A stretch of 60,138 nucleotides of DNA from Patescibacteria group bacterium (GTDB taxonomy: Bacteria > Patescibacteriota > Minisyncoccia > Moranbacterales > GWC2-37-73), in assembly GCA_022709565.1 (NCBI GenBank), contig JAKLIO010000002.1:1-60138 (forward strand), in the 5' to 3' direction. Numbering within the stretch: the stretch's first letter is position 1; every line of letters starts with the position of its first letter. The position numbers and the translations under genes were made by a program. The notes under the pieces were generated by a model. It was not told the origin of the DNA and made no database searches. It saw nothing but the letters and a program-made list of their open reading frames with translations. Shown here piece after piece: positions 2,321-52,058 of the stretch.

Positions 2321-3643
2321 CTATTTTTGCCGCTTTGTCAATATGAAATCTTTTCGACCCAATTTGCGATGATAACCAATTGCAAACCGATGCGCTTCGT
2401 CCATAATCCGCTTTATTAAATTTTTATCATTGAAAACTTCCTTAACCTCATTTCTTGGATCATAAATCTTAAATCTTAAATCTAATTTATTGCGTTCCCT
2501 CCCTTTCGCCACTGCTCCAATATTAACTGCTAAACCTAATTCTTCGTGTAAAAGTTTTTCTGCCATATTTAGATGCCCTACTCCGCCGTCTAAAAGAATT
2601 AGGTCGGGCATAGTCCAATTGTTTCCAAATCTTCTAGCAAGCACTTCTCGCATCATACCAACATCATCACTGCCCGAAATAGTTTTGATTTTAAATTTAC
2701 GGTATTCTTTTTTGTTTGGCTCCCCGCCTTCGAAAACCACCATCGAACCAACCGCATTCGTACCGGAGATATTGGAAATATCATAGGCCTCAATTCTCGT
2801 ATTTTGTATCTCGTATTTTGTATTTAGTATTTTAGGTTCAAAATCTTTCGAAATCAATGCGATATCATGAATGTGATTTAGTGCAAAAACTTTATTTCTC
2901 AAATCCGCGGCTTTTTCAAATTCATGCTTTTTGGCCAACGCCTGCATTTCCTTTTCAAGTTTTTTTACTAAGCTTTTCTTTTTTCCTTCCAAAATCATTC
3001 TGATGCCGTGGATATTTTTTTGATAATCTTTCTCCGAAATCGCGCCGGCATATGGTCCGGGACAAAGCCCTATCTGAAAATCCAGACAGCCCTTTTCCGT
3101 TTCTTGCCTATTTGAATGAAAAGGAAAAATTTTACGGATTATTTTCAGCGCAATTTCCATTTGCTTTTTGGAAGTATAGGGACCAAAAACAGCTTTTAGG
3201 TTACCCGCCTCGCGTCGATGAGCGGTCATCTCCGCGAGTCGAGGCGGGTAGCTTTTAGCTTTTAGATTTTTAAAATCAAGATCTGTTGCCCGAAGGATTG
3301 TTATCCTCGGGAATTTTTCTTTCGTAACGACAAAGTATGAAAATGACTTATCGTCTTTAAGATCAATATTATATTTCGGCTGATGTTTTTTGATCAGATT
3401 GCTTTCCAATATCAAAGCTTCCAAAACCGAATCGGTCTGGAAAAATTTTATGTCTGCCACTTTGGGCATCATAGCTTCAATATGGTTTCTGGTTTCCGTG
3501 CCGCGAAAATATGAAGCTACCCGATTTCTGAGATTGGTCGCTTTGCCGATATACAATATTTTTCCGGCTTCATCCCTGAAAATATAGACTCCAGGCGCTG
3601 TTGGCAATTTATTCAGTTTTTCCTTAATTTTTGACATTTCCAT
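2321..3643 (-). CDS. uvrC: Excinuclease ABC subunit C. Short form that ends right after the DEAHRFAI motif, with no (HhH)2 tail. Carries two in-frame repeat insertions.
   Basis: N-terminal GIY-YIG motif (GVYIFRDEAGKILYIGKATNLRNRVASYF), a UVR motif (KHEFEKAADLRNKVFAL), an RNase-H-like region (IEAYDISNISGTNAVGSMVVF) and DEAHRFAIGYHRK near the C-terminus. Confidence 0.9.
   Translation of the reverse strand: MEMSKIKEKLNKLPTAPGVYIFRDEAGKILYIGKATNLRNRVASYFRGTETRNHIEAMMPKVADIKFFQTDSVLEALILESNLIKKHQPKYNIDLKDDKSFSYFVVTKEKFPRITILRATDLDFKNLKAKSYPPRLAEMTAHRREAGNLKAVFGPYTSKKQMEIALKIIRKIFPFHSNRQETEKGCLDFQIGLCPGPYAGAISEKDYQKNIHGIRMILEGKKKSLVKKLEKEMQALAKKHEFEKAADLRNKVFALNHIHDIALISKDFEPKILNTKYEIQNTRIEAYDISNISGTNAVGSMVVFEGGEPNKKEYRKFKIKTISGSDDVGMMREVLARRFGNNWTMPDLILLDGGVGHLNMAEKLLHEELGLAVNIGAVAKGRERNKLDLRFKIYDPRNEVKEVFNDKNLIKRIMDEAHRFAIGYHRKLGRKDFILTKRQK
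2797..2835. repeat. ATAC-periodic AT-rich repeat, in frame inside uvrC (peptide [12 protein letters not shown])
   Basis: The sequence tcgtattttgtatctcgtattttgtatttagtatt belongs to the same word family as 10207-10250, 11651-11700 and 53613-53650. Confidence 0.7.
3204..3248. mobile_element. 45-nt GC-rich palindromic element, copy inside uvrC (peptide PPRLAEMTAHRREAG)
   Basis: cccgcctcgcgtcgatgagcggtcatctccgcgagtcgaggcggg differs at 3 positions from the copy at 51864-51908. It is read in a different frame from the uvrA and uvrB copies. Confidence 0.85.
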
Positions 3644-4582: not shown

Positions 4583-7500
4583 CTACTTTCTGCCTAATAC
4601 ATCTTTTAGATATTTCGCTGTGTAGCTTTCTTTATGATATTTGATAATTTCTTCCGGCGGACCGGTCACAATGATGCGGCCGCCATTGTCTCCGCCTTCC
4701 GGGCCCATGTCAATGATCCAATCGGCGGTTTTAATCACATCCATATTGTGCTCAATCACGACCACCGTGTTGCCTGCGTCTACCAACCTATTCAGAACGT
4801 TCAATAATTTTTTAATATCGTCAAAATGCAGTCCAGTGGTCGGCTCGTCCAGAATATACAGCGTGTTACCGGTCGCCAATCTGGAAAGCTCGCTGGCCAG
4901 TTTTATTCTTTGCGCTTCTCCGCCGGACAGCGTGGTTGCGCTTTGTCCAAGTTCAATATAGCCCAAACCGACTTCTTCCAGCACTGCCAAAGGACCGTGA
5001 ATTTTTGGAAAAGCTTCAAAAAATTTCACGCCTTCAGAAACAGTCATTTTTAAAACATCATAAATATTTTTGCCTTTATATTTGACTTGCAAGGTTTCAC
5101 TGTTATATCTTTTTCCATTGCAAACATCGCAGGGCAGATAGACATCCGGCATAAATTGCATTTCAATTTTCAAAAATCCCTCCCCGTTGCAATTGTCGCA
5201 GCGTCCGCCAGGAATATTGAAAGAAAATCTGCCGGGACCATAGCCGCGCAGCTTGGCGTCTTTGGTCTGAGCAAACAATTCACGAATCGAAGTAAAAAAT
5301 CCTGTGTAAGTTGCCGGATTTGAGCGCGGTGTGCGCCCGATCGGCGATTGGTCAATCATAATTACCTTATCAATATTTTCAATCCCGACAATTTCTTTAT
5401 GCCGGCCTGGCGCATCCAAACTGCGGTGCAATTTGTTAGCCAGCGCTTTGTATAATGTTTCTTCAACCAGTGTTGATTTGCCGCTACCGGAAACTCCGGT
5501 CACACAGATAAAAACTTTGAGCGGAAATTCGGCCACAATATTTTTCAGATTATGTTCGCCCGCGCCGCGCACCACGATTCTTTTTTTCTTATTGGCATCG
5601 CGCCGAAACTTGGGAATTTCGATTTCCATTTCGCCGCGCAAATATTTTCCGGTTAAAGATTTTGGATTATTGATCACTTCGGTAGGCAATCCTTGCGCCA
5701 CGATTTCTCCGCCATGTTTGCCCGCTCCCGGTCCGATGTCCACCAGCCAATCCGCGCTGCGCATCATTTCTTCGTCATGTTCAATGACGATTAAGGTGTT
5801 GCCGATTTTTTGCAATTGGCGCAGCGCTTCCATAAGTTTTGAATTATCACGCGCGTGCAAGCCTATTGAAGGTTCGTCTAAAATATATAGGACGCCTACC
5901 AGCTGCGAACCGATCTGCGAAGCCAGGCGGATCCGCTGCGATTCTCCGCCGGACAATGAATAGGCAGCGCGTTGCAATGTCAAATATTCTAAGCCGACAT
6001 TATTGAGAAATTTTAAGCGCGCCACAATTTCTTTGAGAATCCGGCCGGCAATCATTTCCTCGCGCTGCGTCAATTGCAGTTTTTCAAAAAAATTCAAACA
6101 TTCGCGAACACTCAGCGTCGAAGCTTCGTAAATATTTTTCCCGCCGACCGTCACCAATAGCGCTTCTTTTTTGTATCTTGTTCCTTTGCAAGTCGAGCAC
6201 GGCTTTTGCGACATATATTTTTCAATGCCTTCGCGCACCGCATCTGATTCTGTTTTGAAATATCTTTCCTGCAAAAAACCGACCACACCCTGCCAAGTCA
6301 TATAAAATTTCCAATTGGTGCCGGTTTTGGTTTTGACGATGATGGGAATCTCCTCCCCGCCTCGCGTCGACGAGCGGTCGTTTCCGCGAGTCGAGACGGG
6401 CGCCTCATCTTCAGTTGCCATACTTTCATGCTCAGCTGTTCCATAGAGCAGCAAATCCATTTTCTTTTTTGACAAATCTCTAAGGCGCATATTGTCAGGA
6501 ATATTAAAATATCTGGCTGCAGACAAAATCACGCCGCCATAATAATTATTTTTCTTGAAATTCCAAGGCGCCAAGCCGCCTTCCGCCAGAGTCTTATTAT
6601 TGTCCGGCATGACTCTTTCAATATCTATTTCTTTTTTGAATCCCAATCCTTCACAGCCGCTGCAAGCACCAAACGGAGAATTAAAGGAAAATAAACGCGG
6701 TTCCAAATCGGGAAATTCAATATCGTGTATGGAACAAGACAATTTCTGATTAAAAATTTGAACCCCCTCTTTGCTTCTCCCCCTTTTCAAGGGGGAGATT
6801 GAGTGGGGGTCTTTCAGACTCACTATTTTCACTAGTCCCTCCGACATCTTCAGTGCTTTTTCCACGCCTTCAAAAATTCGGCTTAAATTTTCATCGCTAA
6901 TCTTTACTCTGTCGATTACCAAATCAATGCTATGTTTTTTGTAGCGTTCCAATTTAACGTCCTTAAAATCTTCCAATCTGCATAATTTACCGTCCACAAT
7001 CGCTTCGGAGAATCCGCGCTTCCACATATCATCCAAGAGCGCCAGATATTCCCCTTTTCTTTCGCGCACAATCGGTGAAAGAATTTCGATCTGAACACTG
7101 CGCGAAGCGCTTTCGTTTTTCCCTCTCTCCCCTTTAGGGAGAGAGTCGGTGAGAGGGTGATTAATTTCCAAAATCCGACTTACAATTTCATCTGTTGAAA
7201 GCTTGGAAATTTCCCGGCCGCAAACGGGACAATGCGGAATTCCGATCTTAGCATACAAAAGACGCAAATAGTCATGAATTTCCGTCACGGTTCCGACGGT
7301 TGAACGCGGATTGTGCGACGCCGCTTTTTGATCAATTGAAATTGCTGGCGAAAGTCCTTCAATATAATCAACATCCGGCTTATCCATCTGCCCTAAGAAT
7401 TGCCGCGCATAGCTCGACAAACTCTCCAAATATCTCCGTTGCCCCTCGGCAAAAATGGTATCAAAAGCCAGCGTAGATTTTCCTGATCCGGAAATTCCCG

Positions 7501-9348: not shown

Positions 9349-11547
9349 CTACTTTATCTGCAATTTCCTAAGCTGCGAAATTTCATCGCGAATAATTGCG
9401 GCGCGTTCAAATTGAAGCGCGCGCGAAGCGTCTTTCATCTCCCTTTCCTTTTGTTTGATGTATCCGGCAATATCCTCTAGCGACTCCAATCTAGTGAAGT
9501 CCGGTGCCGGCATCGGATTAATTTCATGATCCACAATGGATTTAATATTTTTCTTGATGGTTGTCGGTGTTATGCGATGTTTTTGATTATACTGCGCCTG
9601 TATTTTCCGCCTCCTGTTTGTTTCATCGATTGCGCGCCGCATCGAACCGGTTATGCTGTCGGCATACAAAATCACGCGCCCGCTTACATTTCTGGCCGCC
9701 CGTCCGATTGTTTGAATAAGTGAAGTTTCGCTGCGGAGAAATCCTTCTTTGTCTGCGTCCAAAACAGCCACCAAGGAAACTTCCGGCAGGTCCAAACCTT
9801 CGCGCAAAAGATTGACGCCCACCAAAACATCGAACTGCCCGCGCCGAAGTCCTTCCAAAATGCGGATGCGATCCAAAGTTTCCACGTCCGAATGCACATA
9901 TTCGCATTTTATTTTGTGCTCTTTCAAAAAATCCGACAGGTCTTCCGCCATTTTTTTTGTCAGTGTCGTGATCAAAACCCTCCCGCCTGCAACGCTATGC
10001 TGCATTTCATTAGTACTTTCTTTTGTTTGTTTCTTAGAGCCAACAACTTCATTATTTTTATTCAGAAGCGTAGCATTGCGGGCAGGTTCCTTTCTTTCAA
10101 TAACTTTTTCTATTTCACTTAAAACATCTTTTACTTGCCCCTTGGCTGACTTAACAACCAGCTCCGGATCCAGCAATCCCGTTGGACGAATGATTTGCTC
10201 CACGATATTGTATTTCGTATCTCGTATTTTGTATTTCGTATTTTTTGGTTTATTTATAATTTGCGATTTATAATTTGTTTGTTGTTTGTTGTTTGTATCT
10301 TGTGATTTGTCGTATTCATACGGTCCTGGCGTCGCCGAAGTAAAAATCAGCTGCTGAATGTGCTTTTCAAATTCCGCAAATTTGAGCGGGCGATTGTCAA
10401 ACGCGCTCGGCAATCTGAATCCATTCTCTACCAATGATTCTTTACGCGCTCGGTCACCATTGTACATCGCATTTAATTGCGGCACAGTCACGTGAGACTC
10501 ATCAATCACCAACAAAAAATCTCTTCCCCCGCTTCGCGTCGAGGAGCGGTCGTTTCCGCGAGTCGAGGCGAGAAAATAATCCATGAGAGTATAGGGCATT
10601 TCGCCGCTTTTCCGTTCGGTCAAATAGCGGGAATAGTTTTCAATCCCGTTGCAATAGCCGATTTCGCGCATCATTTCCAGATCCTGCTTCGTCCGACGCC
10701 CTAACCTTTCCGCTTCCAGCAATTTATTTTTCTTTTTTAACTCGGCGACCCTTTCTCGCAGCTCTTTCTCTATCTTATCCAACGCTTCTTGCATGACCGG
10801 CTCCGGCACCACGAAATGCTTGGCCGGATAGATCAAAGTTTTTTCGAGATTGCCCAGATTTTCACCTGTCAAAAAATCATATTCCTGAATGCGATCTACC
10901 TTTCCATTTTTCATTTCGATGCGCGTCACCACTTCCCGCCCGGTCGGCATTATTTCAAAAGTGTCACCAGTCACCCGGAATTTCCCCCGACTCAACAGAT
11001 CGCTTCTTTGAAATTGCAATTCAAGAAGTTCTTTCATTTTTTCTTCTCGTTTGAATTCATCGCCCAATGCAATTTCAAAACTGATATCGCGGTAATATTC
11101 CGGCGAACCCAAACCGTAGATACAGGAAACTGACGCTACAATAATAACATCGCTGCGCGAAAGCAAGGCTGAAGTGGCCGCATGGCGTAGCCGATCAATT
11201 TCATCATTAATTTGTGCTTCCTTCTCTATATATGTATCCGATGCGGCCAAGTAGGCTTCCGGCTGATAGTAATCGTAATAGGAAACAAAATATTCCACGG
11301 CATTCTTGGGAAAAAAGGTTCTCAGTTCCTGAACCAATTGCGCTGCTAAAGTTTTGTTGGGTGCGATAACGAGCGTGGGTTTTTGCACTTTTTGAATTAC
11401 GTTGGCAATCGTGAATGTTTTGCCGGATCCGGTCACACCCAAAAGCGTCTGAAATTTTTGCCCCCTTTTTATGCCTTCAACCAACTTCTCAATCGCCTGT
11501 GGTTGATCCCCTGCCGGTTTGAATTTACTGCTTAATTTAAATTTCAT
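9349..11547 (-). CDS. uvrB: Excinuclease ABC subunit B (732 aa), carrying three in-frame insertions
   Basis: Helicase motif I (GVTGSGKTF), DESH box ([11 protein letters not shown]), motifs V and VI ([27 protein letters not shown]...QTIGRAARN) and a C-terminal UVR motif ([16 protein letters not shown]). Confidence 0.95.
9982..10086. repeat. 105-nt insertion with imperfect terminal inverted repeats, inside uvrB
   Basis: The arms CCCGCCTGCAACGCTATGC (9982-10000) and GCGTAGCATTGCGGGCAGG (10068-10086) are complementary at 15 of 19 positions. They encode an extra segment just before the conserved [13 protein letters not shown]. Confidence 0.5.
10207..10315. repeat. ATAC-periodic, low-complexity AT-rich repeat in frame inside uvrB (peptide [12 protein letters not shown] plus a Q/N/K-rich tract)
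   Basis: attgtatttcgtatctcgtattttgtatttcgta followed by ttgtttgttgtttgttgtttg. Same word family as 2797-2835 and 53613-53650. Confidence 0.65.
10528..10572. mobile_element. 45-nt GC-rich palindromic element, copy inside uvrB (peptide [15 protein letters not shown])
   Basis: cccgcttcgcgtcgaggagcggtcgtttccgcgagtcgaggcgag has 3 mismatches to the copy at 51864-51908. Same orientation and frame as the uvrA copy. Confidence 0.9.
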
Positions 11548-45258: not shown

Positions 45259-45930
45259 TTAAATTTGATCTAATGAACTTTCTATCCAACCCATAATTCT
45301 ACGATGCAATTTTACTCCAAAATTAGAATTGCCCTTGCAAACAGCAGAAATGTGAGCAGTTCCGAACGGCAATTTTTTTCTATTTTTAGTAGCTTTATTT
45401 TTTCTCAAATCTACCTGTGTCTTTCTGAAATTTTCGACTGATAATTTTGTGACTTTACGCCAATATGATTCGCACTTTTTCACATCACAATCTGGATACA
45501 CATGAATCATAACAGTTAAATTTTCATTTTTCAACCCACAGCAATCTTTAAACCATTTAATTGCCAACTTTATTATTTTCGGATCAGAGTTTATAACTCT
45601 AACAATATCATGCGTTTTGGATCCTTCGCCCATATACAATCCGAGTCCGATCATCCATAAATCTTTTTTATTTAGCACCCCTAATTCTTCTTTAGCTTCT
45701 TTTTTTATTTGAGCTATATCCTTGACTCTTTTGTTATGCTTGATTCTGCCTGATTTCAGAGGTCCAGTTTTTATTCTTTCCCAAACCTTTTCATTTGGTT
45801 CAAAAGGAACTTCCTTGAGCCACGAACTTAATGTACTTTTGCTGATTTTTATCTGCTTCAATATCAAACCATAGGAATATCCCCTTTTTCTCAAACTCAT
45901 GGCCTTATTTTTTATATGCATATCCTTCAT
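45259..45930 (-). CDS. HTH plus LAGLIDADG-like (homing-endonuclease-like) protein
   Basis: 223 aa with an N-terminal resolvase-type HTH (LRKRGYSYGLILKQIKISKSTLSSWLK) and an LWMIGLGLYMGEGSK motif resembling LAGLIDADG. Its stop codon lies 5 nt upstream of the tRNA-Gly 5' end. Confidence 0.45.
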   Translation of the reverse strand: MKDMHIKNKAMSLRKRGYSYGLILKQIKISKSTLSSWLKEVPFEPNEKVWERIKTGPLKSGRIKHNKRVKDIAQIKKEAKEELGVLNKKDLWMIGLGLYMGEGSKTHDIVRVINSDPKIIKLAIKWFKDCCGLKNENLTVMIHVYPDCDVKKCESYWRKVTKLSVENFRKTQVDLRKNKATKNRKKLPFGTAHISAVCKGNSNFGVKLHRRIMGWIESSLDQI

Positions 45931-51255: not shown

Positions 51256-51356
51256 ATTTTTGTTCTTTATTAATTTATATTTTTATTATACATTGTATGC
51301 CAATGTATTTCCAGAAGTATTAAAAAAAGAGTCTTATAAAAAACTCGTTTTGATGC

Positions 51357-51477
51357 TGGTACCGCTACGGGGAAATCTCACGCACTCACTGTGTTCGCTT
51401 TTGAAACCTCTCGGTTTCAATACTTCCACCCCGGGAAAACCTAGGTTTTCCCGACCCCTTTCCTTGTTCGATTTTCC
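51357..51477 (-). repeat. tRNA-linked conserved element, copy 2, downstream of tRNA-Glu. Its distal 17 nt (51357-51373) duplicate the tRNA-Glu 3' end including CCA.
   Basis: tggtaccgctacgggga at 51357-51373 is identical to 51524-51540. The core is as in copies 1 and 3. Confidence 0.85.
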
Positions 51478-51523
51478 TTAGCATAAAATTAAAAAATCCC
51501 CATGCTGAGAATTTTTAATTTTT

Positions 51524-51598
51524 TGGTACCGCTACGGGGAATCGAACCCCGGTTTACAGGATGAAAACCTGCTGTCCTAACCACTAGACGATAGCGGC
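51524..51598 (-). tRNA. tRNA-Glu (anticodon UUC), CCA encoded
   Basis: Hand-folded cloverleaf: acceptor GCCGCTA/TAGCGGT, anticodon stem GCAGG/CCTGT with loop TTTTCAT, T arm CGGGG-TTCGATT-CCCCG, 3' ACCA. Confidence 0.88.
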
Positions 51599-51606
51599 AA
51601 ATTATT

Positions 51607-51852
51607 CTATTTTAACATTTCTTTTATTTTCTTTCTTCCAGAGGAAGATTTCCAATATTTTTCAGCTTCCCTGGCAAGTTTTATGTGAATACATTTCTCA
51701 ATTATTTGCCAACTAAAATTTCCGAAGTTCTTTGTTGTTTTTACTTCTCCATGCGAATGCTCTTTTATCCTCCTTTCTAAATTATCAGAAAAACCGACGT
51801 AAGTTTTTGTTTTATTTTCATTAATCAGCAAATATACATAATAATATTGCAT
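51607..51852 (-). CDS. GIY-YIG nuclease-family small protein
   Basis: YYVYLLINENKTKTYVGFSDNLERRIKEHSHG...LAREAEKYWK matches the GIY-YIG/URI pattern. Its ATG abuts a tRNA-Glu 5' fragment and its stop lies 8 nt upstream of the intact tRNA-Glu. Confidence 0.8.
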   Translation of the reverse strand: MQYYYVYLLINENKTKTYVGFSDNLERRIKEHSHGEVKTTKNFGNFSWQIIEKCIHIKLAREAEKYWKSSSGRKKIKEMLK

Positions 51853-51931
51853 AACCTGCTGTCCCCGCCTCGCGTCGACGAGCGGTCGTTTCCGCGAGTC
51901 GAGGCGGGCTAACCACTAGACGATAGCGGCA
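51853..51931 (-). pseudogene. Duplicated 5' half of tRNA-Glu (nt 1-33), interrupted by the 45-nt palindromic element
   Basis: 51853-51863 plus 51909-51931 are identical to 51566-51599. A 45-nt insert lies between them. Confidence 0.85.
51864..51908. mobile_element. 45-nt GC-rich palindromic element, reference copy with base-exact boundaries
   Basis: cccgcctcgcgtcgacgagcggtcgtttccgcgagtcgaggcggg has terminal 9-bp inverted repeats CCCGCCTCG/CGAGGCGGG, G/C at 34 of 45 positions, and no stop codon in any of the six frames. Confidence 0.9.
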
Positions 51932-52058
51932 TTTATAAAACGCCTGAAACAATAACAGTGGAAAGCTTAACACGAAAAAAATAAATAGTCAAAGGTCTTA
52001 TAAAAAAGGCTCTGCAAGCAACAAATTAGTTCAAAAATACTCCTCGGCTGGAGTATTT

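Follow-up and report, generated by a model that had tools for sequence, protein, structure and literature searches.

A minimal GIY-YIG nuclease gene and a GC-rich palindrome embedded in a tRNA-Glu gene: one copy of a widespread cassette of Patescibacteria

How does a nuclease gene come to lie inside an essential tRNA gene, and how is the tRNA kept whole? The question is raised by a 60,138-nucleotide (nt) stretch of a Patescibacteria group bacterium (contig JAKLIO010000002.1; "the window" below means this whole stretch), in which an 81-amino-acid (aa) GIY-YIG protein is encoded between a displaced 5' piece of tRNA-Glu(UUC) and an intact copy of the same tRNA. We conclude that this locus belongs to a family of cassettes, 0.3-0.4 kb in size, that are widespread inside the tRNA genes of Patescibacteria (Candidate Phyla Radiation, CPR). 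Each cassette brings together an 80-90-aa GIY-YIG gene, a palindrome rich in GC and a second copy of part of the host tRNA, by which a complete tRNA is kept in place. The architecture and the insertion into a tRNA gene can be stated with high confidence. We consider it probable that the cassette is a selfish, tRNA-embedded unit of nuclease plus hairpin, closest to the Ssn systems and to free-standing homing endonucleases; that the nuclease and the hairpin act as partners is an even call. No description of a layout that joins a tRNA-embedded GIY-YIG gene, a palindrome and a displaced tRNA piece was found in the literature.

Read on the minus strand, the locus begins with a promoter-like motif and a leader of about 33 nt, continues through tRNA-Glu nt 1-22, a 45-nt palindrome, nt 22-33, the open reading frame (ORF) and 8 nt, and closes with the intact tRNA-Glu(UUC). 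The parts are as follows.

51964..51992, minus strand: promoter-like motif of the tRNA-Glu gene, TTGACT (51992..51987), a 17-nt spacer and TG-n-TAAGCT (-10 at 51969..51964)
51909..51930, minus strand: displaced tRNA-Glu nt 1-22 (5' strand of the acceptor and D arm to the loop/stem junction), exact repeat D1
51864..51908, either strand: 45-nt GC-rich palindrome CCCGCCTCGACTCGCGGAAACGACCGCTCGTCGACGCGAGGCGGG, of the CCCGCCTCG...CGAGGCGGG type, which splits the displaced copy in the D arm
51853..51863, minus strand: displaced tRNA-Glu nt 23-33, ending two bases into the anticodon loop (exact repeat D11; nt 22 is shared with the palindrome end)
51607..51852, minus strand: gene for the 81-aa stand-alone GIY-YIG nuclease (Pfam PF01541), stop codon included
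51599..51606, minus strand: 8-nt spacer from the ORF stop to the tRNA, read from the sequence
51524..51598, minus strand: intact tRNA-Glu(UUC) (ARAGORN; Rfam tRNA model, 65.7 bits)

The ATG of the ORF directly follows displaced nt 33, and the stop codon stands 8 nt ahead of the intact tRNA. A repeat finder returned two exact direct repeats of the tRNA-Glu 5' part: one of 23 nt at the very 5' end, one upstream T included, and one of 12 nt (nt 22-33, at 51864..51853). The insert in the tRNA-Glu locus, which lies downstream of a sigma-70 gene, amounts to 287 nt and encodes the nuclease only. Displaced nt 1-22 are identical in the related loci L008, L009 and L049. The first-pass annotation had described a single 34-nt repeat broken in the anticodon loop. 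A break after nt 33 does hold at the window locus; as a general rule it does not, and the copies in relatives end anywhere from about nt 19 to nt 51.

The upstream motif, strongly conserved in Moranbacteria, recurs as TTGAYT-N14-TGtTAARCT ahead of the cassette in L008, L009, L049, L017 and L024, and ahead of the intact tRNA at two sites that lack the cassette, L051 (3352-3380) and L052 (3665-3693). From this conservation we infer that TTGACT...TAAGCT probably acts as the tRNA-Glu promoter. A consensus promoter scanner did not call the motif in the window; its -10 hexamer matches TATAAT at three of six positions, with the extended TG present. Because L051 and L052 have that promoter directly before an intact tRNA-Glu, the displaced half is the original 5' part of the tRNA-Glu gene, still at its original promoter. 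Two familiar kinds of tRNA-gene insertion were considered and rejected. A group I intron in the anticodon loop would be followed by nt 34-76, and here a complete tRNA follows the insert. Likewise, in Rfam searches at gathering and permissive thresholds (E up to 1), only the intact tRNA reached a gathering score, and the sub-threshold matches contained neither an intron family nor a known leader RNA. An integrase-mediated tRNA island was set aside on the 287-nt size of the insert, on an ORF that is a nuclease and nothing else, and on a repeat that comprises the 5' part of the tRNA rather than its 3' part.

Both the tRNA and the palindrome are repeats that break unitigs, and the duplication might be a mis-join of such repeats or a product of chance. 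We give that reading next to no credence, as it is refuted by the joints themselves. Four metagenome runs, independent of one another (anaerobic digester, activated sludge, wastewater and soil), yielded unitigs in which the cassette joints are free of differences; these unitigs span from the tRNA through the ORF and nt 22-33 into the palindrome, and from the palindrome through nt 1-22 into the upstream flank. Three other assemblies (L008, L001/L009 and L049) show the cassette parts in the same order, and the architecture recurs in dozens of genomes. The duplication, for which mis-assembly had been named as a risk, is thereby upheld.

A protein-profile search, with one genome per species, extended the comparison to 41 loci from Moranbacteria, Buchananbacteria, Komeilibacteria, Portnoybacteria, Kaiserbacteria, Paceibacterota and others, some of them mislabelled metagenome-assembled genomes. 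A co-oriented tRNA lies a few to about 60 nt from the ORF at 37 of the 41 loci according to ARAGORN, and at 38 once L017, whose tRNA is hidden by two Ns, is added. At most loci, the far side of the ORF bears a copy of the 5' part of the same tRNA, and this copy co-varies with the local tRNA sequence. An ordinary UPF0213/YhbQ-like gene, which the first-pass annotation had expected to find at unrelated loci, away from tRNAs and free of flanking repeats, if its reading were wrong, is not borne out by these counts. The displaced copies are interrupted in the D arm by a GC-rich hairpin after nt 10, 12, 17 or 22 and resume past it to an end point that is commonly nt 33-38 in the tRNA-Glu clade. The order of parts varies: L018 and L022 have ORF, displaced copy and tRNA, and L019 and L021 have tRNA, ORF and displaced copy. 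In L018, L021 and L022, the hairpin-bearing copy is downstream of the ORF.

The tRNA partner is specific to the nuclease clade. A 28-row clade (support 99/97) is found only at tRNA-Glu and a 4-row clade only at tRNA-Arg(GCG); a further clade, recovered by the palindrome scan described below, sits at tRNA-Asn, Gln, Leu and Arg among the matches listed. Related nucleases also occur at other tRNAs (Arg, Gly, Met, Asn, Gln and Leu). In relatives of the window locus, the neighbourhood is kept as tsaD, sigma-70, ORF, tRNA-Glu, thioredoxin and an FTR-like gene.

The palindrome had first been taken for a later hit on the displaced half, and the wider sample overturns this. A strict test, which required a perfect 8-bp GC-rich stem no more than 260 nt upstream of the ORF, was passed by 27 of 40 loci. 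About seven more have a hairpin that is imperfect or downstream of the ORF, which brings the tally to about 34 of 40. In the flanks, the strict test finds one hairpin per 3.9 kb, and the CCCGCCTCG...CGAGGCGGG family appears only three times in 157 kb, one of these being a second tRNA-Glu copy. The hairpin, present with the ORF at most loci and almost absent from the flanks, is therefore a constant part of the module and not a later chance hit.

The displaced half is not a decaying relic either. Between the window and L009, the displaced tRNA pieces are identical at 33 of 33 positions and the palindrome at 44 of 45, together 77 of 78, whereas a codon alignment of the two ORFs gives 66% identity at third positions and 11 of 17 at four-fold sites. 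This leader is kept intact either by selection or by continual gene conversion; the tRNA pieces, though not the palindrome, could owe their conservation to conversion with the intact tRNA 290 nt away.

A leader far better conserved than synonymous sites might also act at the RNA level, with the displaced half and hairpin as a 5' leader through which translation of the ORF or tRNA processing is controlled, whether by pairing with the tRNA 3' half or as a protective 5' hairpin. The hairpin is suitably placed for this, usually 11-17 nt before the start codon in relatives, and in the window the palindrome ends 11 nt ahead of the ATG. Its orientation relative to the ORF, however, is found both ways, which argues for a role in DNA over one in RNA, and it lies downstream of the ORF in the three loci named above as well as inside coding regions elsewhere. 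The RNA fold of the displaced-half leader is no better than that of shuffled sequences (z = -1.4), and Rfam gives no match to it. We regard an RNA-level element as very unlikely. Folded as single-stranded DNA, the window palindrome forms a 9-bp outer stem of about -15 kcal/mol on either strand.

Is the tRNA-Glu gene ever found without the cassette? The sigma-70 neighbourhood was sampled for empty sites without reference to the nuclease. At this same locus, the window, L008, L009, L049 and L024 are filled, and L051 and L052 are empty, with the promoter motif 35-45 nt before an intact tRNA-Glu(UUC) and no ORF, displaced copy or hairpin. Empty L051 and filled L024 are 100% identical in the promoter stretch and the tRNA; they differ by about 380 nt, comprising leader, displaced nt 1-22, palindrome and ORF. 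L049, in which no gene had been called, was at one stage a candidate empty site and was rejected as such, since its sequence contains the full cassette. The comparison of relatives that the first-pass annotation had called for thus bears out its central claim, that a nuclease gene was inserted in the tRNA-Glu gene and the tRNA kept whole by a duplicated 5' part.

The unit is also found at more than one isoacceptor gene. Among five sister species, it sits at tRNA-Glu(UUC) in L012, L014 (more divergent) and L016, and at tRNA-Glu(CUC) in L013 and L015. When L012/L016 are aligned with L013/L015 (alignment A3), high similarity runs exactly from displaced nt 1 to the 3' end of the intact tRNA, and both flanks are unrelated; across the ORF, the synonymous distance (dS) is 0.37 and the nonsynonymous distance (dN) 0.02. 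Two loci are chimeric. In L041 (2427-3025), the two outer ends, a 5' piece (GGTCCCG...) and a 3' end (...CCGGGATCAC), match the tRNA-Arg type of L037, L042 and L044, and the inner intact tRNA-Arg has a different acceptor stem (GCTCTCA...). The whole is a nested array of outer 5' piece, palindrome, ORF, intact tRNA-Arg and two tandem tRNA copies with a palindrome after nt 17 in the D loop, and the last of these copies is a chimera whose 3' end is that of the outer type. L011 combines a displaced piece of the GGCCTCA type, as in its sister L010, with an intact tRNA of the GCCGCCA type. In the window's own lineage, the cassette looks to have been inherited vertically for the most part.

Some tRNA copies carry hairpins and no ORF. 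L010 has, besides its cassette, another full-length tRNA-Glu(CUC) 2.2 kb further downstream (5027-5145). This second copy has a promoter copy of its own, carries a 45-nt palindrome after nt 22 and no ORF, and ends in ...CTACTA instead of ...CTACCA. L083 (minus strand, about 1428-1700) also lacks the ORF; its displaced tRNA-Glu(CUC) copy, which bears two hairpins, stands 14 nt ahead of the intact tRNA, and a partial 3' copy follows downstream. L083 is either a relic left after ORF loss or a palindrome-only state.

What, then, is the encoded protein? By Pfam, the ORF encodes a GIY-YIG domain (PF01541, score 50.9 bits, cut-off 22.6, E = 1.9e-13, residues 3-75), and Y7, Y18, G20, R28, H32 and E64 are invariant across 35 family sequences. 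Its AlphaFold2 model (pLDDT 92) has the secondary-structure order E-E-H-E-H-H and the GIY-YIG fold, a beta-sheet of three strands with helices at its sides. The top Foldseek matches are UPF0213 protein BH0048 (1zg2), the I-TevI catalytic domain (1ln0/1mk0; TM score 0.58-0.66, with 1mk0 at 0.66), Slx1 and the N-terminal domain of UvrC; among the nine best matches, probabilities are 0.82-1.0 and E-values only 0.02-0.1. BH0048 is the best match in the PDB by structure and by sequence, but a weak one (E about 0.006-0.02, 24% identity). The nearest proteins belong to Candidatus Moranbacteria, and the family as a whole numbers 3,015 cluster representatives at E <= 1e-10 in the profile search. PMC1564403 describes minimal GIY-YIG domains without the C-terminal Asn found in the UvrC/I-TevI lineage, among them UPF0213/Slx1-like proteins such as BH0048 and Escherichia coli YhbQ. 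The 81-aa protein also lacks this Asn, which groups it with the minimal Slx1/UPF0213-like prokaryotic type (PMC1564403). The resemblance to UPF0213 proteins is weak, however, and neither a tRNA-embedded layout nor a cognate palindrome is described for them in PMC1564403.

The ORF is under purifying selection: dN/dS is 0.13 between the window and L008 and 0.04-0.06 within the L012 group. These estimates leave out the pairs window-L009, window-L049 and L008-L049 (indels or frame) and L010-L011 and L012-L014 (unequal length); window and L009 were compared by the codon alignment given above instead. L015 (2501-2761) and L023 (2498-2758) each have one in-frame stop, TAA and TGA respectively, in an otherwise conserved sequence and are probably recent pseudogenes.

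Such constraint, together with the invariant catalytic residues, would be expected of an ordinary, non-mobile host protein, for example an Slx1/UPF0213 repair nuclease in a stable operon with tRNA-Glu; the tRNA fragments and hairpin would then have been left behind by local duplication or would aid expression. The strict linkage to tRNA-Glu in the 28-row clade over several CPR classes, the tsaD/sigma-70/cassette/trx synteny in Moranbacteria and the conserved leader all speak for this domesticated or housekeeping gene. It nonetheless fits poorly with empty sites that have the same promoter and tRNA, with a unit found at different isoacceptor loci between unrelated flanks, with chimeric and nested loci, pseudogenised copies and the ORF-less L083, and with related nucleases at many other tRNAs. 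A host operon also leaves unexplained the hairpin in every displaced tRNA piece. On balance, we judge a housekeeping gene unlikely.

The filled and empty alleles, the coincidence of unit boundaries with tRNA gene boundaries and the clade-specific tRNA partner could instead mark a classical homing endonuclease. Such an enzyme would cut the uninterrupted double-stranded tRNA-Glu gene, and break repair would copy the ORF in; the palindrome would serve only to disrupt the site or the direct repeat, protecting the displaced copy and preventing loss of the ORF by repeat-mediated deletion. Weak profile matches to TIGR01453 (31 bits, below cut-off), PHROG 7168 and PHROG 314 lean the same way. A natural comparison is with the free-standing homing endonucleases of GIY-YIG type, for example SegB from the cluster of tRNA genes in phage T4: genes for these enzymes lie among or in tRNA genes, vary in presence between relatives and are thought to spread by recombination through conserved flanking genes. 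Seg proteins and I-TevI differ from the present system in being longer than 200 aa with the DNA-binding domain that they need, in having no known companion palindrome, in not being known to duplicate part of the target gene and in being phage genes rather than bacterial chromosomal ones. Homing endonucleases join a catalytic domain to a DNA-binding domain, and the whole 81-aa protein is one bare catalytic domain. Moreover, the cassette's intact tRNA would stay cleavable, a site-disrupting filler does not account for a palindrome family that lies in frame in many genes far from tRNAs, and a sister clade carries the same palindrome at four different tRNA identities. We therefore hold classical homing to be improbable, if only a little more so than a housekeeping role.

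Another parallel is found in the mORFs of fungal mitochondria, in which an endonuclease ORF sits in a gene, a supplied duplicate keeps that gene functional, and a gene fragment is left as a footprint. The mORFs differ in that their hosts are protein-coding genes, their enzymes are LAGLIDADG or GIY-YIG proteins with DNA-binding parts, no palindrome is known to be obligatory, and the duplicated portion is the 3' end rather than the 5' part.

Among experimentally characterised systems, the Ssn family is the closest to the selfish nuclease-plus-hairpin cassette that we favour. Ssn proteins are single-domain GIY-YIG enzymes of about 94 aa that cut single-stranded DNA beside hairpin repeats and are inactive on double-stranded DNA and RNA (Chenal et al. 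2025, Nat Commun; PMC11893778). They fall in the CDD clade cd10448 (GIY-YIG_unchar_3), which Pfam and NCBIfam profiles do not set apart. These repeats (NTS/SRM) flank the ssn gene and are dispersed in the genome, an insertion-sequence-like layout noted by the authors (PMC11893778). Both systems feature a protein of about 80-95 aa (81 aa here) with a single GIY-YIG domain and no DNA-binding domain, a GC-rich hairpin repeat that adjoins the gene and has further dispersed copies (three more in 60 kb here), and a hairpin type that varies between nuclease clades. They differ in that the palindrome here does not match the SRM motif; that the gene here is embedded in a tRNA gene, with a displaced piece bearing the hairpin in the D arm, and tRNA is never mentioned in the main text of PMC11893778; and that the dispersed copies here are in frame inside coding genes, whereas Ssn repeats lie around genes. 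Cleavage of single-stranded DNA by the protein studied here is a prediction from this likeness.

Where else does the palindrome occur? The window holds only three other copies, all of them in frame in genes for excision repair proteins.

3204..3248, minus strand: palindrome in uvrC, in frame, aa 132-147, ...PPRLAEMTAHRREAG
6356..6400, minus strand: palindrome in uvrA, in frame, aa 398-412
10528..10572, minus strand: palindrome in uvrB, in frame, aa 326-340, just ahead of the DESH helicase motif

In the UvrB relatives P0283 and P0286, the flanking residues are identical and exactly the 15 residues of the insert are missing. The alignment also shows a similar insert, PASTRRDDRSSRRGG, at the same site in P0284 and a shorter one in P0288. 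A peptide-pattern search of 120 UvrB proteins found such a peptide only in the window's own P0281 and, at a different position, in P0305. Inspection of the sequence around all four copies in the window brought out no shared word, no duplication and no target-site rule.

Metagenome contigs were scanned for the exact pattern; the 80 loci analysed, out of at least 119 stretches, gave 82 palindrome occurrences. Of the 82 listed, 41 are inside long open frames and mostly read PASTRG..SSTRGG. Hosts among the listed matches, named by eye except for UvrA and UvrC (blastp), are GyrA, GyrB, PNPase, AtpA, ribonucleotide reductase, SecA, Mfd, TopA, UvrA, UvrC, ArgRS, AlaRS and MurC. With housekeeping genes this diverse as hosts, the idea that uvrABC are a special target of the palindrome is weakened, and a link to excision repair is doubtful. 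Nine of the listed occurrences lie within 500 nt of a GIY-YIG match, seven of these being cassettes of ORF plus tRNA; in L062 and L098, the GIY-YIG match is a distant 96-aa protein and the palindrome itself is in a long ORF. About a dozen of the 82 listed are beside other tRNAs. Displaced copies of tRNA-Asn, Gln, Leu, Ile and Val, among the matches listed, have the palindrome in the D loop, often right after G18G19, and displaced copies with no ORF at all are listed at L083, L087 and L114. Among the 41 palindromes listed in coding regions, a length divisible by 3 is nearly universal (two measure 38 nt), and the tRNA-linked ones listed are often 38 nt. One further locus, L068:1663-4674, combines two selfish inserts in the essential gene for GyrB: an in-frame palindrome peptide (PASTRGDASSTRGG) and, in the Toprim region, an apparent intein (CFFGNT...VHNS).

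Dispersed palindromes of this kind recall two bacterial systems. In REP/RAYT systems, a single-copy nuclease-type gene is flanked by its cognate palindrome, further copies of which are dispersed in the genome; RAYTs, however, are HUH tyrosine transposases able to transfer strands, whereas the domain here is a hydrolytic GIY-YIG, and REPs are extragenic. Rickettsia palindromic elements lie in frame in protein-coding genes, where they are tolerated as extra peptide loops, but they are 100-150 bp long and have no known dedicated nuclease. Neither system is known to be tied to tRNA genes.

How might such a selfish cassette work? The ORF and tRNA would be co-transcribed from the tRNA promoter, and RNase P would presumably free the tRNA. 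By analogy with the Ssn nucleases and their hairpin repeats, the nuclease may recognise the palindrome as a DNA hairpin. A cut beside the hairpin would promote recombination through the flanking tRNA sequence, which would act as a portable homology arm and could let the unit spread between tRNA-Glu genes. The palindrome would also spread alone, in frame, into housekeeping genes, as at uvrA, uvrB and uvrC here.

Several points weigh against this selfish reading. The candidate substrates of the nuclease range over double-stranded DNA, single-stranded DNA hairpins, branched DNA and even RNA. A search of both strands of the whole window, with its palindromes, gave no match to the published SRM motif, HGTCWYN(0-2)YYVSBRHN(0-5)WNVSBRGN(0-2)RNCYNB. 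Strand transfer is beyond a hydrolytic GIY-YIG domain, which leaves the insertion of cassette and palindrome unexplained. A nuclease that cut tRNA-Glu DNA would be expected to target the cassette's own intact tRNA too. The Glu clade keeps strictly to tRNA-Glu in several CPR classes and shows conserved synteny within Moranbacteria, a pattern that fits long vertical inheritance and possibly a host function. The dS of 0.37 across the two isoacceptor loci is no smaller than the 0.34 between species at one locus; therefore, no recent jump is documented. Finally, the direction of the chimeras is ambiguous, as L041 suggests that the inner tRNA was imported and L011 that the displaced piece was.

A broader proposal, which we offer tentatively and hold to be doubtful as it stands, is a two-part mobile system. 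It would comprise a structure-directed minimal nuclease and a 36-45-nt palindrome acting in single-stranded or cruciform DNA, with host repair placing hairpins in tRNA D loops and, in frame, in housekeeping genes. The nuclease gene would travel between genomes inside tRNA genes, and the duplicated tRNA would serve as a universal homology arm.

The window's tRNA-Glu has been invaded on its other side as well.

51354..51523, minus strand: separate non-coding insertion of about 167 nt, ending in an 18-nt repeat of the tRNA 3' end (51357-51374)

The 18-nt repeat is real (51357-51374 equals 51524-51541), as the first-pass annotation had it, and its notion of repeated invasion was right in substance. 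Within the insertion, for which the repeat finder lists D3, I7 and I20, are a T-arm-like word in inverted orientation and a perfect palindrome of 11 bp (51432-51453). In L049, L008 and L001, which do not have it, the ...ACCAAA of the tRNA joins directly to the window's post-remnant sequence (alignment A5). It is a separate and recent event unrelated to the cassette, another small non-coding element. Downstream of the tRNA, L018, L020 and L025 likewise have the inverted T-arm word and a repeat of the tRNA 3' end; L042 has both words without a clear element, and L044 has the 3'-end repeat without the inverted T-arm word.

Elsewhere in the window, the other tRNAs (Gly-CCC, Gly-UCC, Lys and Arg) have no displaced 5' halves. 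A 223-aa ORF (45259-45930) ends just ahead of tRNA-Gly(UCC), with no Pfam match and no tRNA-Gly 5' piece nearby; a parallel to the GIY-YIG locus was not confirmed. Just outside the whole tRNA-Glu region, a 13-nt exact direct repeat (minus strand TTTTTTATAAGAC) lies on both sides, at 51331-51343 and 51995-52007, and may be due to chance in AT-rich DNA.

The cassette has a practical consequence for annotation. Gene calls often begin upstream of the ORF and translate the displaced tRNA and palindrome (...RVEAG, PPRLAELVDARRG, MAELVDALDSKS... in P0133, P0137, P0138, P0140, P0143, P0178 and others). At the other end, the ORF of several relatives runs into the tRNA, with C-termini such as ...LPLSSSG, and other public gene calls of the family likewise continue into tRNA-Glu (...SSSG). 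The extended calls are a systematic annotation artefact: gene callers often carry the ORFs on across the palindrome and pieces of tRNA, and pseudo-copies with a hairpin may be reported by tRNA finders.

In summary, the locus suggests that a very small selfish gene can persist in a manner not described so far, namely inside an essential tRNA gene whose promoter is borrowed and whose tRNA is kept whole by partial duplication. It also links a nuclease gene to a palindrome that lies in frame in core proteins of CPR bacteria (UvrA, UvrB and UvrC here; GyrA, GyrB, SecA, PNPase, AtpA, TopA and Mfd elsewhere), and the palindrome is thus a concrete candidate source of some of the insertions, otherwise unexplained, that characterise CPR proteins. 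If the nucleases are hairpin-specific like Ssn, the family of 3,015 representatives would be a reservoir of new site-specific single-strand nucleases. If the two-part mobile system is real, it would rank among the smallest self-encoded mobile elements known and would be a source of peptide insertions in essential CPR proteins.

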